32,085 nt of DNA from the NCBI GenBank assembly GCA_964649925.1, contig CAZYQJ010000001.1:499-32583 (forward strand), written 5' to 3'. The stretch comes from an uncultured Litorilinea sp. (GTDB lineage Bacteria > Chloroflexota > Anaerolineae > Caldilineales > Caldilineaceae). Shown in pieces: positions 981 through 29,187 of the stretch. Below the pieces are notes generated by a model that saw only the letters and a list, made by a program, of their open reading frames with translations, made no database searches and was not told where the DNA came from. Each line of letters begins with the position of its first letter. The stretch's first letter is position 1. Both the position numbers and the translations under genes were made by a program.

Positions 981-2156
981 CTAGGGTAGCGCCGCGGGCC
1001 AACCAAATCTACCGCTCGCATCCGGCAGCAAGTCAGCTACGGCAATCACGGCATGTAACGGCAGCGCGCCATAGATATGCGGAAATTGCTCCTGGGCCAA
1101 CGGGTCACCGGCAAGCGCCGGTTGCTCGTAACGCAGCGTCGATTCTATTGTGCGAAGGTCAATACACAATACCACCAATTCATCGCCAGGGGTAAAGAAA
1201 GCATTCGCTACATGCAGCATCTGTTGGCGCGTCGAGCAGTGAATAAATCCCTCCGTATCGAGAGACGCGGCCCGATACACCCCAACCGGCAGCGCGGCCA
1301 GCCACTCGCGCAGCGGCGCGATATGGTAGATCGGTTCAGGCGGGCCCGTCATCTCCTCCGGCTGCAGGGCTAGTGCCAGATCATGCCAGAAGGCCGCAGG
1401 GCTGTCTGTAACGTACCAACGCACCCCCATATCTAGAAAACGGCGCAGCGCGGCAGGCGTCACCCGAAAGGGCCGCAGTTGCAGCACCACGCCGGCATCC
1501 TGCAGACGGCGCTGCGTGTGCGCCAAGTACGCGTCGTCCAGCGCATAGACCGGTTCAGACCCTGGCTGCGCCACCTGCACATGAAGCTGTAGCTGGCTGA
1601 TCGGTGGCATACCGGAGGCCAGCCATTGATCAACACGCGCCCGGATCGCTTCTGGCGGCCCGCCCGCCCAGGTCATAGCAGGCGCACCAGGAAAGACCCG
1701 CTGTATCTCGGCCAACATCTCTGCATGGCCGCTGACAAAGATCACCTGGCCGGTCACGCCAAACTCATCCAGCTTGCCGCGCAGCACGCTCAGGTCTACC
1801 GCCTTTGGCTCGACATACAGGCGGCGGCCTGGCTGGCGCGCCATCTCGGTCAGCACGTCGTCAAACATCGGCACGCGCGCCCCGCGAAATGCCGGACTGA
1901 AACGGATGCCCGCATCCACGCGTTGTACCTCGTCCAGCATCCATTCCGCTAGCGGGCGATCCGCGACCGCCGCGGGTACATCCGTCGTGCGCGCCAGCGT
2001 GGCATCATGCACACAGACCAGCGCACCGTCCGCGGTTACACGCACATCCGTTTCCGGGATAGCGCCGGGATAACGCCATGCATGGCGAAAGGCAGGCATG
2101 GTGTTCTCCGGCGCTTCGTCCACAGCCCCACGATGAGCCTGGTAAAAGACGTCCAA
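981..2156 (-). CDS. Fusion protein: glycerophosphodiester phosphodiesterase (GDPD) domain + C-terminal DUF952 domain
   Basis: 391-aa ORF with a TTG start at 2156. The N-terminus carries the GDPD signature (YQAHRGAVDEAPENTMPAF...ETDVRVTADGALVCVHD). The C-terminal ~115 aa (IYHIAPLREW..EGFIHCSTRQQ..LRYEQP..FPHIYGALPLHAV) fit the DUF952 pattern (GFIH-ST, LR-E, FPH-YG-L). Confidence 0.8.
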   Translation of the reverse strand: MDVFYQAHRGAVDEAPENTMPAFRHAWRYPGAIPETDVRVTADGALVCVHDATLARTTDVPAAVADRPLAEWMLDEVQRVDAGIRFSPAFRGARVPMFDDVLTEMARQPGRRLYVEPKAVDLSVLRGKLDEFGVTGQVIFVSGHAEMLAEIQRVFPGAPAMTWAGGPPEAIRARVDQWLASGMPPISQLQLHVQVAQPGSEPVYALDDAYLAHTQRRLQDAGVVLQLRPFRVTPAALRRFLDMGVRWYVTDSPAAFWHDLALALQPEEMTGPPEPIYHIAPLREWLAALPVGVYRAASLDTEGFIHCSTRQQMLHVANAFFTPGDELVVLCIDLRTIESTLRYEQPALAGDPLAQEQFPHIYGALPLHAVIAVADLLPDASGRFGWPAALP

Positions 2157-2186
2157 TGCCGTTACCCCCTGATCTCCAGCCTCATC

Positions 2187-3248
2187 TCAGTTCCACCCGT
2201 TGGCATAGGCAGTTTCATACATCGCCACAATATTCTCCGGCGGGCTGACAGCCTGAATGTTATGGCACGGCGCGAGAATATAGCCGCCACCCTTGCCCAG
2301 CGTTTCCAGGTTTTCCAACACTTCAGCCTCCACCTCCTGTACCGTGCCAAAGGGGAGCGTGTGCTGGTTGTCCATCCCACCGTGCAGAACCACTTGTGAG
2401 CCAAAATCGCGCTTGAGCGCGGCTCGCTCCATCCCCGGTGACCGCCACTGGATCGGGTTCAGCACATCAATCCCTGCGGCGATCATGTCCGGGATGATCT
2501 TGCGGATCGCGCCGTCGCTGTGGAAAAAGACGTACACGCCAGCGCTGTGCGCCAGCTCCATCATGCGCTTCATGCGCGGGATAAAGAACTCACGGATGAC
2601 TGCGGGTGAAAACAACAGGCTCTCCTGCCCGCCAAAATCCTCGGCGACATAGGAGAGGTCGATTCTGCCCGGCAGTTGTTCATAGATGCGCAGCGTATTC
2701 TGGTAGGCGAAGTCAAACAGCTTGTCCAGGCAGTAATGTACCAGTTCAGGCTGCAGCACCAGGTCCATATACGCCTGCTCGCGCCCACGCAGGTCGGCAT
2801 AGATCAGGAACGGTTCAGAACCGCCCCCCTGAATCGGGTACTGCTTGCGGTTGCCACGCACCTGATATGGGATGCCCCGGTAGTCAAACCAGTCCACCGT
2901 GGGCCAGCGGTAGTTCGCCTCAATGTCCGCCACCGTGTCATATTGGGCCAGCGGGGCATTGACACACTCTTTATAGCGCCCTGACCCATAGCTCACCCAC
3001 CGGAAGCGCCTCCCATACATATCCTCAAAACGCGGCAGTTTTGCCCCCACATAGCGCGGCGCAACACTCACCACCTTGTCAATGTGCAGCCGCTCATACA
3101 TCTCCCAGCGGTTGCCCACCCCAAGGTGGCGCATCACTATGTCGGTTGCCTCCGGCGTGCCCCAATAGTCCAGGGGAACCCGGTCCGGTGTGTGCCGCGC
3201 CAGCACTGCCTGCCACCGCTCGCGCGGGGTCATGCTCTCGCGGGCCAT
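2187..3248 (-). CDS. Uroporphyrinogen-decarboxylase (URO-D) family protein, MtaA/CmuA-like corrinoid methyltransferase candidate
   Basis: 353 aa; ATG 3248 is preceded by GAGGTGA. Length and sequence pattern fit a URO-D-type TIM barrel. It starts 9 nt after the stop of a B12-binding protein gene. The position I align to the MtaA H-x-C metal motif reads FFHSDG, and a Cys lies in ILAPCHN near the C-terminus. Confidence 0.7.
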   Translation of the reverse strand: MARESMTPRERWQAVLARHTPDRVPLDYWGTPEATDIVMRHLGVGNRWEMYERLHIDKVVSVAPRYVGAKLPRFEDMYGRRFRWVSYGSGRYKECVNAPLAQYDTVADIEANYRWPTVDWFDYRGIPYQVRGNRKQYPIQGGGSEPFLIYADLRGREQAYMDLVLQPELVHYCLDKLFDFAYQNTLRIYEQLPGRIDLSYVAEDFGGQESLLFSPAVIREFFIPRMKRMMELAHSAGVYVFFHSDGAIRKIIPDMIAAGIDVLNPIQWRSPGMERAALKRDFGSQVVLHGGMDNQHTLPFGTVQEVEAEVLENLETLGKGGGYILAPCHNIQAVSPPENIVAMYETAYANGWN

Positions 3249-3257
3249 GCGCTCACC

Positions 3258-3893
3258 TCACCCGACAATTCCGTTGGCCAGCGTCGCGCACTGGCTGGCA
3301 TCCGGCGCAAACCCGTCCGCGCCGATACGCTGGGCAAATGTCTCGGTGACCGGCGCGCCGCCCACCAGTACCTTGACCCGATCGCGCAGCCCGGCGGCCT
3401 TCAACTGGTCGATCACCACCCCCATATTGGGCATGGTCGTCGTCAGCAGCGCCGACAGGGCGACGATATCAGGCTGTTCGCTCTGAACCGTCTCCACAAA
3501 TCGCTCCGGCGCAACGTTCACCCCCAGGTCGATGATCTCAAAGCCAGCGCCCTCCAGCATCATGCCCACTAGGTTCTTGCCAATGTCGTGCATGTCCCCG
3601 CGCACTGTGCCAATCACCACCTTGCCTTTTGGCTCCACCGCCGCTTCGGCCAGATGCGGTCGCAGAAGCGCCAGCCCAGCCTTCATGGCACGTGCCGACA
3701 CCAGCAGTTCTGGCACAAAATACTCACCCTCTTCAAAGAGAGCCCCCACCTCGCGCATGGCTTCGACCAACCCGTCATCCAGCAGGCTCTTGGCAGACAG
3801 GCCCGCCGCTAATCCGGCCTGGACCGCAGCTTCTGTCTCCGGCGCATTTCCGGCGATGACCGCCTCACGGACTGCATTAACATGCTCACTCAT
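3258..3893 (-). CDS. Corrinoid (cobalamin-binding) protein of a methyltransferase system
   Basis: The ORF track starts at 3965. I prefer ATG 3893 (AAGGAG 8 nt upstream), giving 211 aa. B12-binding motifs present: D-x-H-x-x-G (GDMHDIGKN), S-x-L (SALLTTT), GG (VLVGGAPV). An N-terminal helical cap domain is also present. Confidence 0.85.
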   Translation of the reverse strand: MSEHVNAVREAVIAGNAPETEAAVQAGLAAGLSAKSLLDDGLVEAMREVGALFEEGEYFVPELLVSARAMKAGLALLRPHLAEAAVEPKGKVVIGTVRGDMHDIGKNLVGMMLEGAGFEIIDLGVNVAPERFVETVQSEQPDIVALSALLTTTMPNMGVVIDQLKAAGLRDRVKVLVGGAPVTETFAQRIGADGFAPDASQCATLANGIVG

Positions 3894-3978
3894 TCGTCCA
3901 TCTCCTTTGCTGTCGAGAAATTGCGGGATGGAAACCCATCCCTCACAGGGGATATCCTCTAACACAAACAGGCATGCG

Positions 3979-4848
3979 TCAGCAGCCCGTCAAAAAGCGC
4001 GCGCCCTGCAAGATCCCTAGCTTCTCCGCATCAGGATCACGATGGAAATTGGAATCCTCCAGTTCGATTGACACCGCGCCCGCATAGCCAAACTCAACCA
4101 GCAGCCGCAAGATCTCAACCCAGCGTGCTATGCCATGACCTGGGATCGTGTAGCGCCACGTCATGCCCGAGAACGGCTGCGGCTTGGCGAACGTCGCCGG
4201 TTGCTCAGTGCCATACTCGTACAGGTTTTCCTCCAGGATCATCGTATCCTTGCCATGCACATGATAGACCCGCTCACCAAACTCACGCAGAAAACGCAGG
4301 GGGTCAATCCGCATGCGGATCAGGTGCGACGGGTCATAGTTGATCCCCATCGCAGGCGAAGCCACCTGCTCGAAGAAAGCGCGATAGCCTTCCGGCGTGC
4401 AGCAGAGCGCCCCGGGACCTGGCCAGCCCTCGATTACCAGTTTGGCATTGGCTTCCTCCAGCGTCGGTGCCAGTTCGCCAAAGCTCTCGACCATATAGCC
4501 AAAATTCTCCGCCCGCGGCAGTGCCGGGTCTTCGGGCAGCATCACCAGGAAGTGATTGACCGGCCCCAATGCGGCGCAGGCGCGGATATACTCGGCGTTG
4601 CGCGCCAGGGCTTCGGCGCGCCGCCCGCGGTCCGCTGCAATCATGCCCTTGTTGTCGGGCATGTCCACGCTGCCAATGCGCAGCCCCGCATCCACGACCG
4701 CCCGCCCGGTGACATCGCCATCGGTGCGCAGATCGATCACCTCCAGTTCATTCTCCTTCGCCCAGTTCACCAGGGCATTGAGGTCTTGTTGCCACTCCCC
4801 ACCCCCGCGCCGAAAACCGATGGGGAAACCGCCGGTTCGAGTCTTCAC
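3979..4848 (-). CDS. Sugar phosphate isomerase/epimerase, xylose isomerase-like TIM barrel
   Basis: 289 aa; GTG start with AAGGA 8 nt upstream. Pattern typical of the AP-endonuclease-2/xylose-isomerase-like barrel (..NFGYMVESFG.., ..YHVHGKD.., ..AVSIELED..). Confidence 0.7.
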   Translation of the reverse strand: MKTRTGGFPIGFRRGGGEWQQDLNALVNWAKENELEVIDLRTDGDVTGRAVVDAGLRIGSVDMPDNKGMIAADRGRRAEALARNAEYIRACAALGPVNHFLVMLPEDPALPRAENFGYMVESFGELAPTLEEANAKLVIEGWPGPGALCCTPEGYRAFFEQVASPAMGINYDPSHLIRMRIDPLRFLREFGERVYHVHGKDTMILEENLYEYGTEQPATFAKPQPFSGMTWRYTIPGHGIARWVEILRLLVEFGYAGAVSIELEDSNFHRDPDAEKLGILQGARFLTGC

Positions 4849-4893
4849 AGTCGCAATCCTTTGCTATGGTTGTAGTTCTATGCTTGTGGTGTC

Positions 4894-6459
4894 CTATGGC
4901 TCAATGGCTGGCTGTTCGGCGACGATCTCGCCAACAACCTGTCCCTGCCACTCAGGTGGAATGGGAATCCCCAGCAAGTGTAAGATCGTGGGCGCAACGT
5001 CCGTGATGTGCACAGGCTGTTGAATGATATGGTTCGCGCGCACCCCGGTTCCCCACACAATCCAGGGAATGGTCATGTCCTCGGCTTGCGCTGTGCCATG
5101 ACCGTGGTCATGCCCGCCGTGATCGGCCATGACGATACAGATAGTATCCTCCAGTTCGCCTGCGGCGTCCAGCGACGCGATCACCCTCCCGATGATTGCA
5201 TCGGACTGGGCAACCGCTTGCAGATAGGCGGACGACATCCAGCCGTAGCGATGGCCTGCGGCGTCGGTAGCTTCCAGATAGACAAAGGCAAATGTAGGCC
5301 GCTGGCGCGCGATCTCGCGTGCGGCCACGCCTCCGAGCTCCTCAGCATTGCTGGGTGAAAAACGCCGGTAGACGCTGAGATCGAGCGTGCCGGGCGGAGC
5401 CATATCGCGCAGTTGTTCCCAGGAATAAAAAGCCGCTGTGTCATATCCGCTGTCGTTGATCACCTCGATCAAACTCGGCAGCGGCGGGTCCAGCGGCGTC
5501 CAATCGTTGGTCATGATGCCGTGCTGTTCGGGATGGGCCGAGTAGAAAAGCGACGTATGGCAAGGCAGCGTGATCGAGGGCATGACCGTGCGCGCCTGAC
5601 CTGTCCATGATCCCTGGCGGCGCAGCCGGTCCATCACCGGCGCGTCGGCTGCCTCCAGCGCATCCGGGCGGCAGCCGTCCAGCATAAAGAGGATCACCCG
5701 CTTTGCCACGGGCGGCAGCGACGGGGCCTCCGCCTGCGCTGTCTCGGCGGCATACTCCGCCATCACCTGCAAGAACACATCCCCATGATCCAGGTTGATC
5801 AGGTCGGCCCCCCAGCGCAGCACTTGGCGAAAGGCCGCGGGGTCGTTCTCCGGATGATAGACCATGATCCGCAGGCCGCGCCTCCGGCATTCGTCCACCA
5901 GTGCCGCCGACATATCCTTCAGCCGCACTTCGACCAGGTTCGCCTGGTATTCCTCATCGGCGCGAATGACGTCGGCCACACTCTCCACGTTGATCTTCAA
6001 CGCCAACCTGCTGTCCAGACGCCGGAACTCGCGTGCGTCCGCATCATTGCCAAACCAGAAGAAACAGGCGTCCTGCATCTCCAACGTATGGATGAGGGCG
6101 ATCAACTCCGGCAGATTGGCCGCCTTCACATCTAGAAACACCTTCGCCTGCCCCTTGATCCAGCGCAAGAACGGCTCCAGCCGCGGCACGCGCTCCTGGG
6201 CAAAGTCGGGATGAAACCAGCTTCCGGCGTCCAGCGCGTCGATCTCGCCCGAAGTCAAGTCGCAGAAATTGCCGCGGCCATTCGTCGTCTGTTCCACCGA
6301 AGGCCCGTGCAAGAGGTAATGCACCCCATCACGGCTGAGATTGACATCGACCTCCACATAGTCAACGCCCCACGCGATACACTGCCGCGCTGCCGCATAG
6401 GTATTTTCCGGAGCAACCTTGTTTGCGCCTTTGTGACAGACGATCTCAATTCGACTCAT
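4894..6459 (-). CDS. Fusion protein: GDPD domain + nucleotide pyrophosphatase/phosphodiesterase (NPP, alkaline-phosphatase superfamily) domain
   Basis: 521 aa. N-terminus has GDPD motifs (VCHKGANKVAPENTYAA..YVEVDVNLSRDGVHYLLHG). The C-terminal half has NPP motifs (ILFMLDGCRPD; nucleophile region MPSITLPCHTSLF; metal site MADHGGHDHGHG). The start overlaps the upstream HAD stop as ATGA (6456-6459). Confidence 0.8.
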   Translation of the reverse strand: MSRIEIVCHKGANKVAPENTYAAARQCIAWGVDYVEVDVNLSRDGVHYLLHGPSVEQTTNGRGNFCDLTSGEIDALDAGSWFHPDFAQERVPRLEPFLRWIKGQAKVFLDVKAANLPELIALIHTLEMQDACFFWFGNDADAREFRRLDSRLALKINVESVADVIRADEEYQANLVEVRLKDMSAALVDECRRRGLRIMVYHPENDPAAFRQVLRWGADLINLDHGDVFLQVMAEYAAETAQAEAPSLPPVAKRVILFMLDGCRPDALEAADAPVMDRLRRQGSWTGQARTVMPSITLPCHTSLFYSAHPEQHGIMTNDWTPLDPPLPSLIEVINDSGYDTAAFYSWEQLRDMAPPGTLDLSVYRRFSPSNAEELGGVAAREIARQRPTFAFVYLEATDAAGHRYGWMSSAYLQAVAQSDAIIGRVIASLDAAGELEDTICIVMADHGGHDHGHGTAQAEDMTIPWIVWGTGVRANHIIQQPVHITDVAPTILHLLGIPIPPEWQGQVVGEIVAEQPAIEP

Positions 6460-7004
6460 ATGCGCGCCTGTTCTATTCCTTGTTCAATCATTGGGATAAC
6501 TGACAGAAGTTCCAGCGGCGTTTTGATCCGATAATCAGGCCGCTCCAAGCTGGAGATAGGCACTTTGCGGCGGCGTGGCGACCAGTCGATCCACACGCTG
6601 ACCATGCCCAACGCGTTCGCGCCTGCCACATCACGTTCCAGGTTGTTCCCCACCATGATCGTCCGCCCATAGTCCTGTGGCGCGATGCCCAGCGCATCCA
6701 GCGCATAGCAAAAGATGGCAGGGTCTGGCTTTTCCACGCCCAGCGCGCCGGAGATGGCACGGACGGCAAACCGTTCAAACAGACCGAAATGACCCAACAC
6801 GTTGCGGAAGGTGCCCACTGGGCCATCCGCCACCAACGCCAGCGGGTAGCCTTCAGCCTGCAGCGCGCACACAAGTTCCGCCGCACCGGGGATCAACTCG
6901 GCCACCTGAGTCTCGCCCGCGCTGTTTTTCACCTCCGTCGCCTCATCGACCAACGTATCGCCACTGTCCAGACAGATCGCCAGCAGCCGTCCCCTGGGTT
7001 GCAT
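6456..7004 (-). CDS. HAD-superfamily hydrolase
   Basis: 182 aa with the Rossmannoid HAD pattern (LLAICLDSGDTLVDE; ..LALVADGP..; ..MVGNNLERDVAGANALG). Motif I reads DSGDT, so the Asp+2 position is Gly by my alignment. Confidence 0.75.
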   Translation of the reverse strand: MQPRGRLLAICLDSGDTLVDEATEVKNSAGETQVAELIPGAAELVCALQAEGYPLALVADGPVGTFRNVLGHFGLFERFAVRAISGALGVEKPDPAIFCYALDALGIAPQDYGRTIMVGNNLERDVAGANALGMVSVWIDWSPRRRKVPISSLERPDYRIKTPLELLSVIPMIEQGIEQARI

Positions 7005-7015
7005 AGATGTGCGTC

Positions 7016-8368
7016 CTATCGTAGTGCTGCCGGGCCATCCGGCAGGGGCAGCAGGTCGTCCACGCGTATCAACTTGTTCGTCGCCATAGCGTGGTTGGCC
7101 GCGATCCCCATCATGATCGACGCTGCGCCGTCAATGTGTGAGGCAGCGCGCGCATACGGGTCTGCGGGTGGATTGGGGGAAAGGATCTGCTCCAACATCA
7201 CCGCATCGCCGCCACCATGCCCCCCCTTCGCTTCAGGGATCTCGACCGAGTAGGGTTTGCCAAACATGGGGAAGACGCGGATATACTTACCGCCGAACGC
7301 AGCTTCCGCCTCTTCATCACGGCGCAGCGTTTCCTCTTCCCCAGCTACAAACTGCTTGCCAACCTGCTCTACCAGTTCAATCTCCAGCCGCCCCTTGTCC
7401 CCCGTGATGGCGACCCGGTAGCCTTCCCACGGGCTGTAGGCGATCAGCGAATAGGTGAGCAGCGTGCCGTTGCGATAGCGCGCTGTCAGGCTCATCGTAT
7501 CCTCGACCGTCACATTCTGCCCAAACACGTTGCGGTCGCGCACATACCCGCTGTCTGCCTCAGCCTCCAGATAGAGGGCGCGCAGCACTGGATGCTTGTC
7601 CAAAAAGAGCGCAAACGGATCGTTCGCTGCCTCGGCATGGCCTGTATAGCGCGCGTAGCTGTAGCTTTCACCACGCCGCGCCGCGTTCTCCTCCCCATAA
7701 AAGAACAGATCCCCCATCGCAAAGACCTCTGCTGGATAGGATTGGATCCACCAGTTGATCAAGTCGAAATGGTGCGTTGCCTTGTGCACCAACAGCCCGC
7801 CTGACTTGTCCTTCTCGCGATGCCAGCGGCGGAAATAGTCGGCCCCGTGGTACGTGTCCAGCACCCACTGGAAATTGACGTGCAGCGGCCTGCCCACCAC
7901 CCCCTGCATCAATAACTCACGCACCTTAGTGCTTAACGGTGCATAGCGATAATTGAAGGTCACGCGCAATGATCGGCCCGTCCGCTCAATGGCATCAAAA
8001 ATCGCGCGCGCCTTCTCGTCGTCGATGGTCATCGGCTTTTCGGTGATGGCATCGCACCCCAGTTCCATGGCGCGGATGATGTAGTGGTGGTGGGTGACGT
8101 CCATCGAAGTCACAATCACTACATCTGGGCGGGTCTGTTCCACCATCTGGTCAAACTGGTCAGGGCGATACGTAGGCAGCGGCTCACGCCCGTATTCCTC
8201 GCGCAGTTGGGTGTTGTACCAGGCCATGCGCGTGGGGCTGAGGTCACACAACGCCACCAGTTCATTGTGTTCCGCATACGTTCCGGCAATGGCGTCAACA
8301 TACATCTTCGCACGCCCCCCTGTGCCGACAATCGCATAGCGGCGCTTTCGATCCTCACTATCCATCAT
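7016..8368 (-). CDS. Gfo/Idh/MocA-family NAD(P)-dependent oxidoreductase
   Basis: The ORF track starts at 8428. I prefer ATG 8368 or 8365 (GGGAAGGA just upstream), giving about 450 aa. N-terminal Rossmann motif [14 protein letters not shown], then the typical ..CDAITEKP.. and dimerisation domain. Confidence 0.8.
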
Positions 8369-8409
8369 CCAATCCTTCCCTGTTGGTTGCTTGGTGTGTA
8401 TGGGGAATC

Positions 8410-8430
8410 CAATGGGAACAATCCCCATTG
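8410..8430. promoter_or_regulatory. Perfect inverted repeat CAATGGG-N7-CCCATTG in the divergent control region (candidate operator or 5'-UTR hairpin)
   Basis: Read directly from the sequence: caatggg (8410-8416), aacaatc, cccattg (8424-8430). It lies about 40 nt upstream of the preferred oxidoreductase start. Confidence 0.35.
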
Positions 8431-8496
8431 CATTGGGTAATTTTCCTCACGCTTGCAGCTACACCCTAGGGTAAATCCTCATGGCGCTCCGTTCAA

Positions 8497-8507
8497 AATG
8501 GGAACAA
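8497..8507. promoter_or_regulatory. Second copy of the 11-bp motif AATGGGAACAA (first copy at 8411-8421)
   Basis: Exact 11-mer direct repeat 86 bp apart inside a ~245-bp intergenic region. The first copy overlaps one arm of the inverted repeat. Confidence 0.3.
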
Positions 8508-8613
8508 AGATGGGTCTTCAGCCCGGTGTCGCGGCTCACCATCCATGATATTGTCAACTTAGCACTAACTAGAACCATTGCGTTCTTTAGAGGTACTTAT
8601 AGAGGAGGATACC

Positions 8614-8742
8614 ATGTCACTTACTGAAGTTGGACTCGTCGCGGGCATGCTGATTGCTGTCGGCGTTGTTCGCTTTGGCATCCCGGCGGCCCTCACCTGG
8701 GCCTGCTGCCGGGTGTTACACCGCATCAATCCCGCAGGCTAG
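8614..8742 (+). CDS. 42-aa single-pass membrane protein (not in the ORF track), first gene of the cytochrome module
   Basis: ATG 8614 is preceded by AGAGGAGGA with 4-5 nt spacing; stop TAG at 8740-8742. Translation: MSLTEVGLVAGMLIAVGVVRFGIPAALTWACCRVLHRINPAG. It shares the signature VVRFG(I/V)P..LHR(I/L) with the N-terminus of the ORF at 11795. Confidence 0.6.
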   Translation: MSLTEVGLVAGMLIAVGVVRFGIPAALTWACCRVLHRINPAG

Positions 8743-8780
8743 GCTCACCCCTAGCCTTGTCCCATTCTGGAGATATTCTT

Positions 8781-9644
8781 ATGGTTGCGAACCATGTGCG
8801 CCTTGCACCCTGGGCCGGTCGCATCGCGGCGCTGCTCATCGCCGTCTGCCTCACTGGCTGGAGTTCATCGACCCTGTACGCCCAATCTGCCGCCCCTGCC
8901 CCGTCGGACGCAGTCACTTCCGAGGCGGTCCCTGCAGAGGGTGATGATGTATGCGTCTCCTGCCATGCCGACGAAAGCGCGGCGTGGGAAGCATCGCCCC
9001 ACGGTGACGGAGAAGGCGGCGGCGCATCGTGCGTAGCCTGCCACGGCGAGTATGTTAAAGGCCACCCGGCAGAAGGGCCAATGTCTCTCAAAGTGGACTC
9101 TTCCTCCTGCGAAGGCTGCCATGCCAAAACCTTCGACCAATGGAGCGAGAGCCATCACGCCGCCGAGGGCGTCCAGTGCATTAGCTGTCACAAGCCCCAC
9201 TCCCAGGAATTGCGGCTCACCGACGAGACGCTTTGCGAGAGTTGCCATCGCGAATCTGTCGAGGATCCCTTCCATACGGCCCACTGGGAAGGCGATGTGA
9301 CGTGTACCTCATGCCATCTATCCGACGCCCCGCACACGGGAGCCGTCGCCAGCGGTGATGCAGCGATTGGGTTAGCCATGGCGCCCACTCACGATTTCAC
9401 CACGGTCTCGTCTGCGAAGTGCCTTGACTGCCACCGCGAGGCGGTGACACAGACCACAACAGAGCCAACCACGGTCGCCGCGAGCCTACCCTTGACGACC
9501 ACCGACGCCGCATCATCAGAGCCAACGCCGCTCGCTACGGCCACGCTGTCGGCAGCGAATCTTGGCTTTGGCTTGGGCATCGGCGGCATCCTGGGCATCG
9601 TCTTTATGTTGATCGCCGCCACCTACGGTTTTGGGAAGAAGTAA
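8781..9644 (+). CDS. Heptaheme c-type cytochrome, secreted and C-terminally membrane-anchored
   Basis: Seven CxxCH motifs: CVSCH, CVACH, CEGCH, CISCH, CESCH, CTSCH, CLDCH. N-terminal signal-like segment (RIAALLIAVCLTGWSSSTLYA). Thr/Ser/Pro-rich linker, then a hydrophobic tail LGFGLGIGGILGIVFMLIAATYGFGKK. I prefer ATG 8781 (GGAGA 7 nt upstream) over the TTG at 8757. Confidence 0.9.
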   Translation: MVANHVRLAPWAGRIAALLIAVCLTGWSSSTLYAQSAAPAPSDAVTSEAVPAEGDDVCVSCHADESAAWEASPHGDGEGGGASCVACHGEYVKGHPAEGPMSLKVDSSSCEGCHAKTFDQWSESHHAAEGVQCISCHKPHSQELRLTDETLCESCHRESVEDPFHTAHWEGDVTCTSCHLSDAPHTGAVASGDAAIGLAMAPTHDFTTVSSAKCLDCHREAVTQTTTEPTTVAASLPLTTTDAASSEPTPLATATLSAANLGFGLGIGGILGIVFMLIAATYGFGKK

Positions 9645-9646
9645 TC

Positions 9647-10573
9647 ATGACTGCACCCGATACCTCCCGACGCACATTTTTGAAAGGCCTGGGAGCCGGT
9701 GCGCTGAGTCTGGTCGCCGTCAGCAGCCAGCTCACCCCGGCCCACGCCAGCAGCACCGTCAATACAGATGACGCCTATGGCGTGTTGATCGATCTCACCC
9801 GCTGCACCGGCTGTGATTCCTGCGTGCTGGCCTGTAAGCAGAAGAACAACCGGCCCAACCCAGACACGAGTGCCGACCGTCTCTCTAGCGATGCCTACTC
9901 TGCGCTGGAACGCTACCCGATCATCAACGCCGACGGCGCGCTGGCGGAGCAAGCAGTCAAACGCCAGTGTATGCACTGCCTCCATCCGGCCTGTGTATCC
10001 GCCTGTACCGTGGGTGCGCTGCGCAAACAGCCTAATGGCCCTGTTGTCTACGAAGCGGACAAATGTATCGGCTGTCGCTACTGCCAGTATGCATGCCCTT
10101 TCGGCGTGCCCACCTATGACTGGAACAATGCCCTCGGCCTGATCCACAAGTGTAACCTATGCGCCGACCGCCTGGCAGAAGGCGAACTGCCCGCCTGCGT
10201 AGCTTCATGCCCCAACGGTGCGCTGCGCTTCGGCAAACGCTCAGCCCTGCTGGCTCAGGCCCACGCCCAGATCAAGACCAATCCGGGCCGCTATGTCGAC
10301 CACGTCTACGGCGAAACCGAAGCGGGCGGCACATCTATGCTCTATCTCTCGGCGGTACCCTTCGCACAGCTTGGCTTCCCGGTGCTGGGCAGCAAACCCA
10401 TCCCGCAAGATGCCGAGCGGATCATGGAAAGCACGCCGATCATCGCCTTGGGGATGGCTACGCTTGCCACCTCGCTCTATTTCATCACCCGTCGCCATCG
10501 CGAATTGGCCGCCGAAAACGCCGCGGCTCAGCCCGCAGATCCAGGCGACGCGCACTCGCACCAGTCTGATTGA
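9647..10573 (+). CDS. Tat-exported four-cluster iron-sulfur subunit (NrfC/HybA/PsrB-like) with C-terminal TM helix
   Basis: Twin-arginine signal SRRTFLKGLGAGAL. Four Cys clusters: CTGCDSCVLAC, CMHCLHPACVSAC, CIGCRYCQYACP, CNLC..CVASCP. C-terminal helix IIALGMATLATSLYFI. Starts 2 nt after the cytochrome stop. Confidence 0.9.
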   Translation: MTAPDTSRRTFLKGLGAGALSLVAVSSQLTPAHASSTVNTDDAYGVLIDLTRCTGCDSCVLACKQKNNRPNPDTSADRLSSDAYSALERYPIINADGALAEQAVKRQCMHCLHPACVSACTVGALRKQPNGPVVYEADKCIGCRYCQYACPFGVPTYDWNNALGLIHKCNLCADRLAEGELPACVASCPNGALRFGKRSALLAQAHAQIKTNPGRYVDHVYGETEAGGTSMLYLSAVPFAQLGFPVLGSKPIPQDAERIMESTPIIALGMATLATSLYFITRRHRELAAENAAAQPADPGDAHSHQSD

Positions 10574-10582
10574 GAGGTACGC

Positions 10583-11737
10583 ATGGCTACCCAAGTTACC
10601 TACCGCCGTCCGACGACTTGGCAGTTCCCGATCCCGCCTCTATCCTGGGCTACGTTGGGCATCCTCGGCTTCCTGACCGTCATGGGGATCTTCGCCGGGG
10701 TCGCCCGTCTGCTGGCCGGGCTGGGGATGACCACATCGCTCACCGATCAAATCCCTTGGGGCATCTGGATCGGCTTTGACTTTACGCTCATCGCCCTCTC
10801 CGGTGCAGGCTTCACCATGGCTGCAGTCGGTCATGTCCTGCACCTGCACCGGCTGGAGGCGGCTGTACGCCCGGCCCTATTCGCAGGCTTCTTGGGCTAC
10901 ACAGCCGTCCTTCTGATCCTTGTGCTTGACCTGGGGCGTCCCGACCGCTTCTATCACTTCATCTTGTACTGGAACCTGCACTCGCCCCTGTTCGAAATCT
11001 GCTGGTGCGTGTTGCTTTATACCACAGTGCTAGTGCTTGAAGTCAGCCCGGACCTCTTGCGTTGGCTAGGCTGGGAACGGCTGCGCCGCATCTCGCAAGC
11101 GATCATGCCGGTTGTCTGCATCCTGGGCATCACGCTCTCCACGCTGCACCAGTCCACCCTGGGCACGCTGTACGTCAACATGCCGCACCGGCTCCATCCG
11201 CTGCTGTACACCCCGTTCATGCCCGTGCTGTTCTTCACCACCTCCGTGATGGCAGGCCTAAGCGTCGCCATACTCGCCTACCGGATTTCTGTCCGCATCC
11301 AAAACAAGAATGAAGACCTGGGTGTTGCTTCGGGGCTTGGCGTTGGGATAGCTGGCGTGTCGCTGATCTACCTCCTGATCAAAGGCGGTCTGCTCTGGTG
11401 GGAAGGCAAATTGCCGCTGCTGTTGGTAAATGACGCCGTTACACGCGCCTGGTGGGTCGAAATCACCGTGGGCGCAATGATTCCGCTCATTCTGCTTGCC
11501 ATTCCGAAGTTGCGCCGCCACAACCTCACCTTGTGGGTCGCGCCACTCTTGGTCATTATCGGCGTTGGCATGAATCGCTTCAACGCCACGCTGCAGGGCC
11601 AAACCCCGCCCTGGACGGAGAGTTGGAGCTACACGCCGCACATCCTCGAATGGCTTTCGACCATCGGCATCATCGCAGGGGCCGCCCTTGTCTGGTATCT
11701 TGCCATGCGTTTTCTTGTGCGCCCTGACGAGCATTAG
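10583..11737 (+). CDS. NrfD/PsrC/HybB-family polytopic membrane subunit (quinone-interacting)
   Basis: 384 aa with about 8-10 hydrophobic helices. Family-typical segment DQIPWGIWIGFDFTLIALSGAGF. Located 9 nt after the FeS gene. Confidence 0.85.
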   Translation: MATQVTYRRPTTWQFPIPPLSWATLGILGFLTVMGIFAGVARLLAGLGMTTSLTDQIPWGIWIGFDFTLIALSGAGFTMAAVGHVLHLHRLEAAVRPALFAGFLGYTAVLLILVLDLGRPDRFYHFILYWNLHSPLFEICWCVLLYTTVLVLEVSPDLLRWLGWERLRRISQAIMPVVCILGITLSTLHQSTLGTLYVNMPHRLHPLLYTPFMPVLFFTTSVMAGLSVAILAYRISVRIQNKNEDLGVASGLGVGIAGVSLIYLLIKGGLLWWEGKLPLLLVNDAVTRAWWVEITVGAMIPLILLAIPKLRRHNLTLWVAPLLVIIGVGMNRFNATLQGQTPPWTESWSYTPHILEWLSTIGIIAGAALVWYLAMRFLVRPDEH

Positions 11738-11794
11738 TGACCGCCGATCACACTGCTGGCGCACAACACCTGACCCGGCTTGGAGGTCGTACCG

Positions 11795-12181
11795 ATGCCT
11801 AGCCCACAGGTCCTGGAAATCCTTGCCCTCGTCGGCATCTTTGTGGTTCGCTTCGGTGTCCCCTTGCTCCTGAGTGCAGCCGTTGTCTGGTGGCTTCACC
11901 GCCTCGACACACGATGGAGCAAGACCACTCCAGCGGTTACAGCGATTCCGGATGATGCACCCGTCGAGGCAAGTGCGGACTACGCCCAGATTATCAGCGA
12001 ACCTTGCTGGGTCTACCGTGCCTGCCCCGAAGAGCGTCGTAATCAGTGCCCGGCCTATCTCCATCCGGAGGTTGTCTGTTGGCTGGCACGGCTGCGCTGC
12101 GATGGCCGGTTGACAAGCAACTGCCGCTGCTGCTCCGTGTTTGCCACCAGCCATGTCAACACGACCGCGGCTGCCGACTGA
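11795..12181 (+). CDS. 128-aa protein: N-terminal TM helix + C-terminal 8-Cys domain, unknown family
   Basis: ATG 11795 with GGAGG 8 nt upstream (ORF track starts at TTG 11780). Sequence MPSPQVLEILALVGIFVVRFGVPLLLSAAVVWWLHRLDTRW..., then CWVYRACPEERRNQCPAYLHPEVVCWLARLRCDGRLTSNCRCCSVF. Basic residues after the helix suggest the Cys domain is cytoplasmic. Confidence 0.65.
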   Translation: MPSPQVLEILALVGIFVVRFGVPLLLSAAVVWWLHRLDTRWSKTTPAVTAIPDDAPVEASADYAQIISEPCWVYRACPEERRNQCPAYLHPEVVCWLARLRCDGRLTSNCRCCSVFATSHVNTTAAAD

Positions 12182-12186
12182 CCGGC

Positions 12187-12840
12187 TTACCCGTTGAGCA
12201 GCCCGCGCTCAATGGCGTAGCGCACAAGCTCAGCCCGGCTGTGCAGATTCAGCTTCGCCATAATATTTTCCCGATGCCGGTCCACCGTCTTGGGACTAAT
12301 GACCAGCCGTTGTGCAATATCACGGCTGGTCAAGCCTTCTGCGGTCAAAGTCAACACCTCGCGCTCGCGTGCGGAAAGCACATCCTCCTGGCGCGTCGCA
12401 TGGCCGTCGCGCTGCAAAACATCATGCATCAGAAAACGTGCTAATGTCGCGTGCAGAAAGACATTGCCCTGATGGACCACGCGAATCGCGGCCACTAGGT
12501 CGTCTGGTGCAGCCCGCTTGGGGATATAGCCCGAAGCGCCTGCGTCGAGCATTTCAAAGAAATACTGCTCGTCTTCATGCATGGTCAGCGCCAACACCGC
12601 GACGTTTGGGTCGAGTTCCTTGATCTTGCGCGTTGCCTCGATCCCGCTCATGCCCGGCATCGCCACGTCCATGATCACCACGTCCGGGTGGAGCGTCCGC
12701 ACCGCCTCCAACGCCTCCGCGCCGCTCCCAGCCTCCGCGACGATCTCCATATCCGGTTCTGCGGCAAAGAGCATCCGCAGCCCGGCACGCACAATCTGAT
12801 GGTCATCCACCAGCAGCAGGCGGATTTGTTCGCTTGCCAC
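12187..12840 (-). CDS. NarL/LuxR-family two-component response regulator
   Basis: 217 aa. Receiver domain (LLLVDDHQ..DVVIMDVAMPGMSG) plus LuxR-type HTH (LSAREREVLTLTAEGLTSRDIAQRLVISPKTVDRHRENIMAKL). The GTG start at 12840 overlaps the kinase 3' end by 38 nt. Confidence 0.9.
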   Translation of the reverse strand: MASEQIRLLLVDDHQIVRAGLRMLFAAEPDMEIVAEAGSGAEALEAVRTLHPDVVIMDVAMPGMSGIEATRKIKELDPNVAVLALTMHEDEQYFFEMLDAGASGYIPKRAAPDDLVAAIRVVHQGNVFLHATLARFLMHDVLQRDGHATRQEDVLSAREREVLTLTAEGLTSRDIAQRLVISPKTVDRHRENIMAKLNLHSRAELVRYAIERGLLNG

Positions 12841-14467
12841 CGTTTGCCTCCTTTATCCCTCGCGTGCTGGTCAGGATCGGCTGGGCCATGCTGGGACGCA
12901 CAGGCATCCGCACCGTGACATGCGTGCCCCGTCCCGGTTCCGAGCGAATCTGTGACTCGCCACCCAACAACTGGGTACGCTCCCGAATGCCGAGCAACCC
13001 CCAGCCGCCGCCGCGGCCATCCATCACCGCCCCCGCATCAAACCCCACACCGTCATCTGATATATAGATCACCAACTCTTCAGGCGCAATATCCAGACCG
13101 ATCTCAACATTGCGTGCGTCGGCGTGCTTGGCAATATTCGTCAAAGCCTCCTGGACAATGCGGAAGAGTAGCGTTTCATATTCGGGCAATAGCCGGGACA
13201 TCTCGCCCTGCACCTCAAAACGCACCGCGATCTCAGGATGGCGATCCTGAAAGGCGCGAATATACCAGCGCAGTGCCGGAACCAGCCCCAACTCGTCCAG
13301 TTGCGGCGGGCGTAAGTCCTCGATTATGCGACGTAATTCCATCATGGCGTCGTTGGCAAACGTTTGAATCGCATCCAATTGCACAGAGTGGGGCAGCCCC
13401 TGCTCTGCCAGCGCATTTTCCAGCCCACGCAGCCCCAGCCCAATCGCACTTAACGATTGCCCAGTCGCGTCATGTAAATCCCGCGCGATCCGCTGCCGCT
13501 CCGATTCCTGTGCATCGACCACCTGGTAGAGCAGTTCAGCCAACATGCGTTCACGCGTCTGCGCCTCTCGATAGAGCCGCGCGTTCTCGATAGACAACCC
13601 CATTTGTTGGGCGATCCCAGCCAGCAATCGCAGGTCAGCCAATGACAACGGCTGGGTCTCACCCTCCACCCGCGCCAGCACAACCACCCCAACCAGATCC
13701 TGCCGGGCGATGAGCGGGAGCGCAATCGCCACCGTTGGGCTGGCATGTTGCCAACACTCGCGGCCAACCAGCACCGCGTCTAGCTCAAATTCCAGTACCG
13801 CACCGTCCGCATGGCGGCAGAGCGCCCGGCCTTTGCGAAGCGCCCCCAGCCCCAGTTCCCAGTTTGGTCCATAGCGTTCGCCGGGAAGCGCCGCCCCCTG
13901 CAAAGGGAAACCGGTCGCCGCGCCCACCATCGGCGTCGAATCCATCGCCGTCCCCAGCAGCACCAACCCGGCGTCGGCAAACGCCAGGTTCTGCACCACC
14001 TGCCGCAACGCCTGGTCCAAACGACTCGATAGCTCCACCGGCGCAGCCAGCAGATTTGAGAGATCGAGCAGCAGCGCCAGTTCGCGCGCCCGCGCATGTA
14101 GCTCCTGATTCAACCGTTCTGTCTCCTGCAGGCTGCGCCTCTCCACTGCCAGGGCACGTTCCTGGGCCGCCAGTTGTGTCTGCACCGCTTCGTCTAGACG
14201 ACGCTGATTCTCCACGCCAAACGCCTGCAGCGCCCGCACCATAAAAAAGGCCAGCACCGCAGCCATAGTCCCTCGAAACAGTTGCACCGGAATACCAAAC
14301 CATGCCAAAAAGAGCTCACTGTTAATCACCCCGCTCGGCGGGATAGGAGAGGGCTGCACGAAGGCCTGCCCGACTGCCCCATAGAAGAAGAGCGCCGTCG
14401 CCGACCAGACCAGATCGCGGCCAAACTGCGGCATATCCACCTGTCGGTATGTTCGCTGCTGTACCAT
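12803..14467 (-). CDS. Sensor histidine kinase (TM segments, coiled coil, GAF, HisKA_3, HATPase_c)
   Basis: H-box ESERQRIARDLHDATGQSL, ATPase motifs (TNIAKHA..DDGVGFD..GGWGLLGIRER), and a GAF-like middle region. The start is uncertain: TTG 14485 (ORF track), ATG 14467 or ATG 14434. Confidence 0.85.
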   Translation of the reverse strand: MVQQRTYRQVDMPQFGRDLVWSATALFFYGAVGQAFVQPSPIPPSGVINSELFLAWFGIPVQLFRGTMAAVLAFFMVRALQAFGVENQRRLDEAVQTQLAAQERALAVERRSLQETERLNQELHARARELALLLDLSNLLAAPVELSSRLDQALRQVVQNLAFADAGLVLLGTAMDSTPMVGAATGFPLQGAALPGERYGPNWELGLGALRKGRALCRHADGAVLEFELDAVLVGRECWQHASPTVAIALPLIARQDLVGVVVLARVEGETQPLSLADLRLLAGIAQQMGLSIENARLYREAQTRERMLAELLYQVVDAQESERQRIARDLHDATGQSLSAIGLGLRGLENALAEQGLPHSVQLDAIQTFANDAMMELRRIIEDLRPPQLDELGLVPALRWYIRAFQDRHPEIAVRFEVQGEMSRLLPEYETLLFRIVQEALTNIAKHADARNVEIGLDIAPEELVIYISDDGVGFDAGAVMDGRGGGWGLLGIRERTQLLGGESQIRSEPGRGTHVTVRMPVRPSMAQPILTSTRGIKEANGGKRTNPPAAGG

Positions 14468-14509
14468 CAGAGCCCAGCAGCCCAATATCGCCGCCGGGAT
14501 GCCCTACAC

Positions 14510-14968
14510 TTACCGCGCCAACACATCCGCACTCGCAATCGCATCAGGGGCTGCAAACCCATAACGCATCCCGACCGCGGCGCACAAACCGATCCATGCC
14601 AGCAGCCCGCCCGCCACCACCGTGAGGATAAGCCACCGGCGCAGTTTCGACTGGACAAGCAACAGCATGGCGAAGTGCAGGAGCATGGCGAATGACGCGG
14701 CCAGCACCGCCAGGCGCACCCACTCCTCCGCGGCAGGCGGCAACCCTCCCCCGGTTCGCAGCCGAATCTGTTGAAACATCTCGATCCACTCGTGCGCGGC
14801 GTGCAGCAGCCCAAAGGCACTCATCGGACGGATGGCCTGGACAAAGCGAAAGCCCGAGACTTGACGGCTTGCCAGGGCAAGCGCCACCCCCAGCGAAAAA
14901 AAGGTCAAGCCGTATAGAAAATAAACGTTATGCAGATTGTCCACCCAGTATTGTGCCACCGGGTTCAC
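14510..14968 (-). CDS. Polytopic membrane protein (about 4 TM), possibly the detached N-terminal sensor module of the downstream kinase
   Basis: 152 aa and hydrophobic (VYFLYGLTFFSLGVALALA; WVRLAVLAASFAMLLHFAMLLLV; WLILTVVAGGLLAWIGLCAAVGM). Same reading frame as the kinase ORF, separated from it only by TAA-GTG-TAG at 14512-14504. Confidence 0.6.
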   Translation of the reverse strand: MNPVAQYWVDNLHNVYFLYGLTFFSLGVALALASRQVSGFRFVQAIRPMSAFGLLHAAHEWIEMFQQIRLRTGGGLPPAAEEWVRLAVLAASFAMLLHFAMLLLVQSKLRRWLILTVVAGGLLAWIGLCAAVGMRYGFAAPDAIASADVLAR

Positions 14969-23461: not shown

Positions 23462-23536
23462 TTGTCCATTCCTTGCTGGTGTACTGTGCGGCACAGAGAC
23501 CGGCCATGCCGCCGCGTGCATTGATTGTGGATAACA

Positions 23537-29071: not shown

Positions 29072-29153
29072 ATTAGTATCATTTTAGCAGATTAACCTGA
29101 AATTAACCTGCAATTAGAGATGGATAAGTGTTTTTCGGCGTGTTTTCGCGTTT
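29072..29153. promoter_or_regulatory. Helically phased A/T tracts (candidate curved DNA / UP-like element) containing tandem ATTAACCTG repeats
   Basis: A/T tracts start at 29072, 29081, 29091, 29102, 29113 and 29124. T-tracts follow at 29131, 29143 and 29151. ATTAACCTG occurs at 29091-29099 and 29102-29110. GTGTTTT(T)CG occurs at 29128 and 29140. Confidence 0.4.
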
Positions 29154-29180
29154 GTGCAGGACGTAACTGGGGCATATACT
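29152..29180 (+). promoter_or_regulatory. Candidate promoter TTGTGC-N17-TATACT placed to give a leaderless mRNA starting at ATG 29188
   Basis: TTGTGC at 29152-29157; TATACT at 29175-29180. Only 7 nt separate the -10 from the ATG, and there is no Shine-Dalgarno sequence. Confidence 0.4.
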
Positions 29181-29187
29181 GAAAGCC

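Follow-up and report, generated by a model that had tools for sequence, protein, structure and literature searches.

What can be the role of a multiheme cytochrome, an iron–sulfur (FeS) protein and an NrfD-like membrane subunit that are encoded side by side, together with two small membrane proteins, and without a catalytic enzyme nearby? This question is raised by a stretch of 32,085 nucleotides (hereafter, the window) from an uncultured Litorilinea sp. of the phylum Chloroflexota (contig CAZYQJ010000001.1, positions 499 to 32,583). There, five plus-strand genes, named here g1 to g5, occupy positions 8614-12181 and are separated by intergenic gaps of 38, 2, 9 and 57 nt. These genes and gaps, and the features that the first-pass annotation had listed for their products, were all found again when the list of open reading frames (ORFs), the DNA and the Pfam matches were inspected. 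We favor, with a probability of roughly 60%, the interpretation that this cassette is a stand-alone quinone:multiheme-cytochrome oxidoreductase of the Nhc/NrfBCD/HybAB kind, provided with its own two-component control and distributed lineage-wide in Chloroflexota.

The cytochrome is encoded by g2 (8781-9644, plus strand, 287 residues; an alternative TTG start is open at 8757). The protein presents an N-terminal signal-like helix, seven CxxCH motifs, a Thr/Ser/Pro-rich stalk and a hydrophobic C-terminal helix, conforming a glycine-zipper transmembrane (TM) anchor. The alignment of the family revealed, in addition to the seven heme motifs, seven further invariant histidines and a strongly conserved C-terminal helix (LGFGxGIGGxLGIVFML). 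The anchor is found in 65 of the 66 orthologues, in which the number of hemes ranges from six to eight. Since the extra histidines match the hemes in number, all seven hemes appear to be bis-His ligated, and g2 would act as an electron wire and not as a catalyst; the possibility of a catalytic role for this cytochrome was discarded on the same basis. When the profile of the g2 family was compared with the PDB, it matched MtrA (6r2q_A, E 6e-17), OcwA from Thermincola (6i5b, 6e-13) and NrfB (2ozy, 2e-10), while the 16-heme cytochrome 1z1n reached only E 0.006. The DmsE/MtrA model TIGR03508 yielded 47.6 bits for a cut-off of 192.2, and a fold search with the AlphaFold2 (AF2) model of g2 (predicted local distance difference test, pLDDT, of 66; modelled without hemes) produced nothing below E 0.35. 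About 110 homologous clusters exist, those with a name coming from Caldilineaceae and Anaerolineae, and their members are publicly annotated as 'hypothetical protein' or 'cytochrome c3 family protein'.

The second component, g3 (9647-10573, plus strand, 308 residues), carries a twin-arginine motif (SRRTFLK), sixteen cluster cysteines arranged in four groups and a C-terminal TM helix. It matched Fer4_11 (3e-22) and TAT_signal in Pfam, and scored 276 bits with HmcB (cut-off 420), 238 bits with HybA (cut-off 263) and 104 bits with the NrfC model TIGR03149 (cut-off 377.6). Its best match in the PDB was FdnH (1kqf_B, 1.4e-32). By these features, g3 is a predicted Tat-exported protein with four [4Fe-4S] clusters, of the HybA/HmcB type, ending in a TM helix. 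In the case of g4 (10583-11737, plus strand, 384 residues), membership of the NrfD superfamily is evident from the Pfam model PF03916 (2.6e-25, 90.1 bits for a cut-off of 25.8). The more specific NCBIfam models HmcC (220 bits, cut-off 550), HybB (NF008133, 207 bits, cut-off 450) and QrcD (140 bits, also below its cut-off) were not reached, and a phmmer comparison of g4 with the PDB sequences gave no match at E≤0.01. However, g4 can be aligned end to end with E. coli HybB (28% identity), and residues R89, Y99, E148 and H184 of HybB are invariant across the E. coli protein and ten Chloroflexota orthologues of g4. Mutation of these four residues impairs coupled H2 oxidation in HybB (work cited in PMC8076601). 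We regard g4 as a putative cofactor-less, quinone-interacting NrfD-family subunit of the HybB/HmcC/NhcC type.

How does this trio relate to the complexes already named? The family matches agree with the earlier proposal that the three proteins represent the quinone-coupling core shared by several of them. They agree as well with the additional claim that no named complex fits, because none of the NCBIfam equivalog cut-offs for Nrf, Hyb, Hmc, Qrc or Dsr subunits was reached by any of the three proteins. Judged by sequence, the closest relatives are HmcB/HmcC and HybA/HybB for g3/g4, the Hmc models giving the best NCBIfam scores in spite of remaining far below their cut-offs, and NrfB/MtrA for g2. 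In terms of architecture, the closest named system is NhcABCD, a cytochrome c3:quinone oxidoreductase of Desulfovibrio with a small NhcD subunit. Nhc and Hmc share a plan consisting of a periplasmic multiheme cytochrome, a tail-anchored four-cluster FeS protein, a ten-helix NrfD-type subunit and a tiny hydrophobic subunit (PMC8076601), and it is this multiheme/FeS/NrfD/tiny-subunit plan, with no catalytic subunit, that the module has in common with both. However, NhcA is a soluble, c3-type, nine-heme cytochrome, whereas g2 has seven hemes, is NrfB/MtrA-like and is anchored by its C-terminus. In the case of its larger relative HmcABCDEF, HmcA contains sixteen hemes, and the system includes a cytochrome b (HmcE) and a CCG-type protein (HmcF) that the module lacks. 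Furthermore, the module differs from both in possessing two small proteins, one of them with a predicted cytoplasmic Cys-rich domain, and a dedicated two-component system with a putative operator. With respect to NhcD and HmcD, g1 can be considered a positional and functional analogue only. Chloroflexota does not figure among the phyla listed for NhcC (PMC8076601).

The likeness to NrfBCD resides in an NrfB-like heme wire, an NrfC-like FeS protein and an NrfD-family membrane subunit. In contrast, no NrfA is found in the window or among the recurrent neighbors of the related loci, g2 has seven hemes instead of five, both the cytochrome and the FeS subunit are tail-anchored, and the end-to-end alignment of g4 is with the ten-helix HybB type and not with the eight-helix NrfD type (helix numbers from PMC8076601). 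Hydrogenase-2 (HybOABC) is resembled by virtue of the HybA and HybB scores and of the four functional HybB residues kept in g4, but HybO and HybC are absent from the window and from the recurrent neighbors (about 70 loci), and a multiheme cytochrome is present instead. The heme domain of g2 is most similar to those of MtrA and of OcwA, the latter from a monoderm, although the relationship with the MtrA family, whose members carry ten hemes, is at the profile level only and the module includes no porin. With respect to oxidases of the CbcL or ImcH type, the module would couple to quinone through the NrfCD pair and not through a NapC/NirT-type or cytochrome b domain; the survey of such oxidases in extracellular electron transfer (PMC6295460) includes no NrfCD-based class. 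Alternative complex III (ACIII) is characterized by ActB, a fusion of molybdopterin-like and FeS parts, by two NrfD-like subunits (ActC and ActF), by an N-anchored pentaheme ActA and by a monoheme ActE, whereas the module has a single NrfD gene and an FeS protein of 308 residues, which matches only the FeS domain of ActB chains (6f0k_B, 3.7e-16; 6btm_B, 2.5e-11). Finally, ttrRS-ttrBCA encodes a tetrathionate reductase with an adjacent NarL-family two-component system. The resemblance lies in an NrfC/NrfD-type respiratory module whose neighbors, a dedicated kinase and a LuxR/NarL-type regulator, presumably control it, but the cassette of the window lacks a molybdopterin catalytic subunit and its kinase bears a different, unclassified multi-TM sensor domain. 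Membership of Hmc, Nrf, Hyd-2, Qrc, Dsr, Ttr or ACIII was consequently rejected, as the cut-offs were missed or the defining subunits were lacking.

The absence of a catalytic partner, already pointed out for the window, was supported by Pfam scans of 29 other ORFs in it. These scans revealed sugar/phosphodiester, corrinoid, amino-acid and housekeeping functions and no molybdopterin enzyme, hydrogenase, NrfA, oxidase, cytochrome b or CCG protein, and g2 was the only ORF with a CxxCH motif in the entire 32 kb. Evidence from other genomes came from loci (denoted here by L and a number) gathered by scanning one genome per species for the pattern of the cytochrome alignment, with g5 being sought afterwards inside the loci and with about 20 kb seen per locus. 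The scan retrieved 80 loci, some 75 of them from Chloroflexota, including Caldilineaceae, Anaerolineae, Ca. Fredericiella danica and Litorilinea aerophila, the latter represented by two metagenome-assembled genomes (L029 and L037). L. aerophila has a cultured type strain, and the module is also carried by a complete genome (CP070811.1). The seven proteins of interest in the window (g1 to g5, kinase and regulator) were mapped onto every locus and, separately, all neighboring ORFs were subjected to unsupervised clustering. The families that recurred most were the cytochrome itself (69 loci), NrfD (60), the FeS protein (60), the kinase (42) and the regulator (39), followed by g5, with 22 loci in its main cluster and more by profile. 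Four types of cytochromes came next: a decaheme protein of about 740 residues (18 loci), another of about 635 residues with a NapC/NirT-like N-terminus (13), a cytochrome b561-c fusion (8), which resembles CbcL, as described in PMC6295460, in architecture only, and a decaheme protein of about 364 residues (4). All other families were limited to eight loci or fewer and, in the roughly 70 loci clustered, no recurrent family was that of a catalytic enzyme, so the homologous loci do not sit systematically beside a known enzyme, an outcome that would have reduced the cassette to an ordinary NrfBCD/Hmc-type module. Genes for bc-type cytochrome b were found downstream in six loci. Large multiheme cytochromes lie beside the module in about one third of the loci, and multiheme clusters directly upstream of it were observed in a subset of Anaerolineae and Caldilineae (L006/L007, 2231-9336; L034, L035, L042, L044, L054, L057, L059 and L066), their members being the three kinds of decaheme protein and the b561-c fusion just mentioned. 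Neither the window nor its closest relatives (L003, L005, L011 and L012) have another cytochrome near the module.

Across these genomes, the order g2-g3-g4 is invariant and what changes is the arrangement of the accessory genes. In the window, g1-g2-g3-g4-g5 converges with a regulator-kinase pair (layout A, also found in L003, L011, L012, L015, L019, L021, L023, L025 and L032). In the commonest arrangement (layout B), g1-g2-g3-g4 is convergent with kinase-regulator-g5-g2', while layout C places kinase-regulator-g5-(g1)-g2-g3-g4 on a single strand (L040, L073 and L076) and layout D consists of g5, a short g5-like ORF and g2-g3-g4. Distant relatives of g5 (25-30% identity), with a small ORF between the regulator gene and their own, are found in layout C in L092/L093, L095 and L096, which suggests that this layout is probably the ancestral one; still another distant relative, in L008, adjoins a cytochrome-FeS-NrfD set. 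The gene denoted g2' encodes a different cytochrome of about 260 residues, with eight hemes and an N-terminal signal-anchor but without the C-terminal helix, which comes after g5 in many genomes and is missing from the lineage of the window. It was observed in L014, L024, L026, L028-L030 (e.g., L028:13261-14067, minus strand), L033, L034, L037, L043, L044, L052-L054, L061-L065 and L081. Of the loci examined, 42 were non-redundant, had a complete core and were flanked by at least 6 kb on either side; among these, g5 was present in 32, the regulator in 34 and the combination of g5, regulator and kinase in 28.

The two small proteins that bracket the trio had been proposed to be paralogs, and this notion received support from BLASTP (44% identity over 27 residues, E 3e-5) and from the dozens of loci in which g1-type ORFs were retrieved when the g5 helix was used as a profile. 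The first gene, g1 (8614-8742, plus strand), starts with an ATG placed after AGAGGAGGA, a strong Shine-Dalgarno sequence, and encodes a single-pass microprotein of 42 residues with the motif VRFGIP in its helix. In 47 loci, the g5-helix profile identified an ORF of 40-43 residues immediately before the cytochrome gene, provided with a GGAGG-type Shine-Dalgarno sequence and with LRFG[VI]P at residues ~18-23. A check with a regular expression added some 18 loci, so that a g1-type ORF is present in about 65 of the 74 loci with room upstream. The possibility that these small ORFs arose by chance was set aside in view of their conservation, constant length and Shine-Dalgarno sequences. A survey of their co-occurrence with the core had been recommended by the first-pass annotation, for which a lack of conservation would have spoken against the proposal. 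The outcome of the survey is that both g1 and g5 are strongly conserved and mutually related. Of about 96 g1/g5-type ORFs, 74 (77%) are immediately followed by a cytochrome gene. Many g1 proteins contain an adjacent Cys-Cys pair after the helix, on the predicted cytoplasmic side (as in WACCRVLH, KGCCLLE or FFCCRVLH). The pair is not universal, and was seen in the window and in L003, L010, L012, L013, L014, L024, L043, L044, L047, L049, L053, L054 and L058.

The second small gene, g5 (11795-12181, plus strand, 128 residues), starts after GGAGG and its product contains one TM helix with a g1-like motif (VRFGVP), a juxtamembrane RLDxRW motif, a linker that varies within the family and a Cys domain. 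Arg19 and Pro23 in the helix (LRFGVP) are near-invariant in the family. Six of the eight cysteines are invariant family-wide, defining the pattern CW-x4-C-x7-CP-x8-CW-x13-C-x2-C (C71-W72, C77, C85, C95-W96, C110 and C113). A word-indexed search provided 12 relatives only, whereas a full profile search raised the number to 424 representative clusters at E≤1e-3 (188 at ≤1e-10), all of them sharing the helix-RLDxRW-linker-six-Cys plan in proteins of about 100-170 residues. Neither g1 nor g5 matched any Pfam or NCBIfam family. The two_CW_domain model NF045718, a domain that we associate with sensor proteins, gave a sub-threshold match in 7 of 35 members of the g5 family (best E 0.21) and none in the g5 of the window; the CW...C...CP...CW...CxxC arrangement common to both can be taken as a lead only. 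In the AF2 model of g5 (pLDDT 83), a helix of 40 residues is connected by a disordered linker to a small helical Cys domain, which probably binds a metal or an FeS cluster, and a fold search of this model against the PDB returned no match. The distribution of charges around the helices is strongly biased. For g1, 3 Lys+Arg versus 37 Asp+Glu were counted in the N-terminal tail and 61 versus 18 in the C-terminal tail; for g5, the N-terminal tail accounted for 8 versus 18, while the 15 residues following the helix accounted for 115 Lys+Arg. From this bias an N-out/C-in topology is predicted for both proteins, and hence the Cys domain of g5 would probably be cytoplasmic. In L073 (8502-9785), a g1-like helix (LRVIVP, E 0.007, a weak match) lies in frame at the N-terminus of NrfD. 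This may represent a fusion of the microprotein to NrfD and, as such, a faint hint of physical association.

Immediately after g5, at a distance of 5 nt and convergent with it, lies a two-component system (12187-14968, minus strand) that, like the palindrome described below, was not mentioned in the first-pass annotation. The regulator (12187-12840, minus strand) is of the NarL/LuxR type, as it matched Response_reg (1.6e-32) and GerE (2.7e-22) in Pfam. The kinase (12803-14968, minus strand, in two ORF pieces, 12803-14485 and 14510-14968) matched HisKA_3, HATPase_c and GAF, completing the receiver-GerE plus HisKA_3/HATPase_c combination of NarL/LuxR two-component systems. Its N-terminus corresponds to a multi-TM sensor domain of about 280 residues without any match in Pfam. 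The alignment of this domain (window 14510-14968, L003:11757-12656 and 23 other loci) showed that the motif H-x2-H-E-W-x2-M-x-Q is invariant (H56, H59, E60, W61, M64 and Q66), which could possibly form a metal, heme or quinone site. This sensor domain is also found with the module in distant loci (L095, L096, L049, L057 and L066), three of which (L049, L057 and L066) have no g5.

An enumerative search in the 240 nt upstream of g1 detected TGGGG-N6-CCCCA in 18 of 47 loci, compared with two at most in shuffled sequences. The extended 18-bp form, ATGGGG-N6-CCCCAT, was found 73 times at no more than one mismatch in the 1.36 Mb of the loci, when about three occurrences were expected. Two positions are preferred, namely 90-290 nt upstream of g1 and the regulator-g5 intergenic region, and the palindrome is of the kind that a GerE-type dimer would bind. 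Palindromes with two mismatches occur at about chance frequency, and they are taken as evidence solely at these two conserved promoter positions. The window contains a degenerate copy (AATGGGAACAATCCCCAT, 8411-8428), located 203 nt upstream of g1, as the putative operator of the NarL-type regulator. Copies of the element are also found at about -225 and -272 in L003 and L010, with which the copy in the window did not fall in register when the upstream regions were aligned by MAFFT. That alignment disclosed a second element (AAAATGGGAACAAAGATGGG, 8495-8514), conserved across the upstream regions of the window, L003 and L010, that shows the same TGGG half-site theme as the palindrome. Scans of positions 8300-12400 with simple models of sigma-70 promoters and terminators yielded sites no more frequently than shuffled sequences.

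A model integrating these observations can be proposed as follows. Menaquinone or menaquinol would bind to g4, whose conserved HybB residues would sustain proton-coupled turnover. The tail-anchored g3 would wire the quinone site to g2 through its four [4Fe-4S] clusters, as in other members of its family, and g2 would serve as a heptaheme outlet or inlet on the outer face, raised above the membrane by its stalk of about 40 residues. The microprotein g1 would be a small subunit packed against NrfD and the TM anchors, like NhcD and HmcD, while g5 might be a second small subunit or a regulon-encoded feedback adaptor reporting to the kinase. The latter would sense a membrane-level signal through its HxxHEW domain, and the NarL-type regulator would recognize the ATGGGG-N6-CCCCAT palindrome ahead of g1 and, in other genomes, also ahead of g5. 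Electrons would pass between the quinone pool and extracytoplasmic carriers, which in many relatives may be the large multiheme cytochromes. The gene content, family relationships, residue conservation, synteny statistics and operator motif on which this model is built are observed directly; complex formation, heme ligation, topology, the pairing of regulator and operator, the direction of electron flow and the physiological partner are what we infer from them.

Where would these electrons go? It had been claimed that the module is a stand-alone conduit to the cell exterior. The stand-alone character is supported, as no enzyme recurs in the neighborhood, but the destination is conjectural, because the large multiheme cytochromes characteristic of extracellular electron transfer are beside the module in a minority of the loci and not in the window. 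The reading in which the module works as an inner-membrane quinol oxidase or quinone reductase for extracellular electron transfer, reaching insoluble substrates through the wall of a monoderm filament, is possible but must be considered tentative. It draws on the similarity of g2, mounted on its stalk, to MtrA and OcwA, on the adjacent genes for the four cytochrome types listed above and on the report that Anaerolineae genomes are rich in large multiheme cytochromes (bioRxiv 10.1101/2021.08.23.457424). However, the window and its closest relatives lack any such neighbor, some hosts are aerobic heterotrophs and no wall-spanning component was identified in this lineage. Alternatively, the module could be the anchor and electron entry for a soluble enzyme or one encoded separately, such as NrfA, a periplasmic hydrogenase, a formate dehydrogenase or an oxidase reached via a small carrier, and its role would then be an ordinary one of the NrfBCD, Hyd-2 or ACIII kind. 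Compatible with this notion are the nature of the closest named relatives (NrfB, HybA/HybB and HmcB/HmcC), the limited portion of each genome inspected, the downstream bc-type cytochrome b genes and the presence in L095 of cytochrome c maturation and cbb3-type cytochrome genes after the cassette. We nevertheless regard it as unlikely, given that the neighbor clustering disclosed no recurrent enzyme, that the equivalog cut-offs for Nrf, Hyb, Hmc, Qrc and Dsr were all missed, and that the membrane tether of g2 and the invariant order of g2-g3-g4 suggest a self-contained unit.

A different matter is whether both small proteins belong to the oxidoreductase. It is conceivable that only g1 is structural and that g5, encoded within the regulon, exerts feedback on the kinase as a modulator or co-sensor, with the Cys domain reading the redox or metal status of the cytoplasm, following a logic comparable to that of MgrB acting on PhoQ or CpxP acting on CpxA. 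We take this proposal seriously, as its chances are not far short of even. The gene that precedes full-length g5 is that of the regulator in 20 loci and that of NrfD in 14, the palindrome is found directly upstream of g5 in the regulator-g5 loci, and g1 is kept even in loci lacking both g5 and the two-component system. Moreover, L097 retains g5, kinase and regulator without the cytochrome, some lineages lack the Cys domain, which would then be dispensable for electron transfer, and there is a weak similarity to the two-CW family. Against it, the helix motif is common to g1, and the proportion of g1/g5-type genes immediately preceding the cytochrome gene points to a stoichiometric partner of the cytochrome; in addition, the kinase sensor domain accompanies the module where g5 is absent, and the two-CW similarity is far below significance. 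The persistence of g1 without g5 or the two-component system, the existence of Cys-less forms of g5 and the placement of g5 make g1 the better candidate for a structural microsubunit, and g1 is probably a small subunit of the complex. For g5 the evidence is ambiguous: it tracks the kinase and regulator at least as closely as it tracks the complex, and may therefore be a regulatory adaptor instead of, or besides, a subunit. A bolder picture would have the g1/g5 family as new single-pass partners docking on tail-anchored multiheme cytochromes and NrfD, with g5 as a membrane-tethered metal- or FeS-binding Cys sensor that physically connects the complex to the kinase, itself endowed with a new HxxHEW membrane domain, so that an enzyme-less conduit whose expression is tuned by its own redox load would serve extracellular exchange in monoderm filaments; this combination is, in our opinion, improbable.

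To return to the stand-alone oxidoreductase with its own two-component control, several facts weigh against it. About one quarter of the well-flanked loci have no g5 nearby and about one fifth no two-component system. Some lineages (L052, L061 and L062) have a g5 devoid of the Cys domain, and in some Anaerolinea-type loci such a g5 has 67 residues. Homologs of g5 exist beside a kinase and a regulator without any cytochrome (L097) and also with neither cytochrome nor kinase/regulator (L090/L091). As to control, the binding of the palindrome by the adjacent regulator is proposed from their co-localization, and the copy at 8411-8428 in the window has two mismatches and is not significant by itself. 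In turn, the kinase gene of the window bears two in-frame stops, TAA at 14510-14512 and TAG at 14504-14506 (TAA-GTG-TAG), where its full-length orthologues, of 700-720 residues, read Tyr-Leu-Leu (YLL in place of stop-V-stop). The gene is thereby split into an N-terminal ORF of 152 residues and a C-terminal ORF of 560, corresponding to either a pseudogene or a local assembly error. Consequently, regulation in this particular genome may be defective, or the assembly may be wrong. All members of the family are known from their genes, several hosts are aerobes (e.g., Litorilinea), for which an ordinary respiratory role is possible, and an enzyme encoded elsewhere in these genomes could, though with little likelihood, be the true partner.

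Filamentous bacteria of the Caldilineae and Anaerolineae abound in activated sludge, anaerobic digesters, sediments, hot springs and sponges. Little is understood of the route by which their quinone pool communicates with redox partners beyond the membrane. Chloroflexota are almost devoid of the quinol oxidases known to act in extracellular electron transfer (CymA, CbcL and ImcH), the Chloroflexi in the survey of PMC6295460 showing one homolog of ImcH and none of CymA or CbcL. The cassette offers a concrete, phylum-wide candidate for this function: an NrfCD-based quinone-cytochrome module with a predicted regulator and operator and two small proteins not annotated previously. Its new parts are the microprotein, the family of Cys-rich membrane proteins, the sensor domain of the kinase and the operator; in the literature on NrfD proteins, multiheme cytochromes and two-component systems of Chloroflexi, Anaerolineae and Caldilineae, we found no earlier description of the cassette, the g1/g5 family or the operator. 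The Cys-rich family, with about 420 clusters, and the unclassified sensor domain join the uncharacterized signalling parts associated with respiration. Should the link between g5 and the kinase be real, the respiratory complex would contain a three-component signalling circuit of its own. The relevance of these findings lies in the bioenergetics and ecology of filamentous Chloroflexota, and they bring no categorical surprise.

Some minor observations concern the surroundings of the cassette. The region upstream of it in the window (981-8428, minus strand) encodes a GDPD-DUF952 fusion, URO-D-like, B12-binding and xylose-isomerase-like TIM barrel proteins, a GDPD-phosphodiesterase/sulfatase fusion, a HAD hydrolase and a Gfo/Idh/MocA oxidoreductase, and has the aspect of a catabolic cluster without relation to the cassette. 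Synteny with L003 extends from the B12-binding gene on, the contig of L003 ending before the first genes. Long ORFs without a Pfam match are found at 26852-29026 (plus strand), 22556-23521 (minus strand), 17-772 (plus strand) and 29092-30267; the one of 724 residues overlaps the aminotransferase gene on the opposite strand and may not be real. In L097 (784-6229), an ORF of 38 residues precedes g5, and a GAF-HisKA_3 kinase lacking the HxxHEW sensor domain, a NarL-type regulator and a Fer4 plus CCG-domain pair are found nearby. Finally, in L095 (7981-12872), NrfD is followed by an ORF of 119 residues without a Pfam match and then by CcmE, CcmF, CcmH and a thioredoxin-like protein and, further on, by a zinc-ribbon-like ORF of 173 residues and a protein with a cbb3-type cytochrome c domain.

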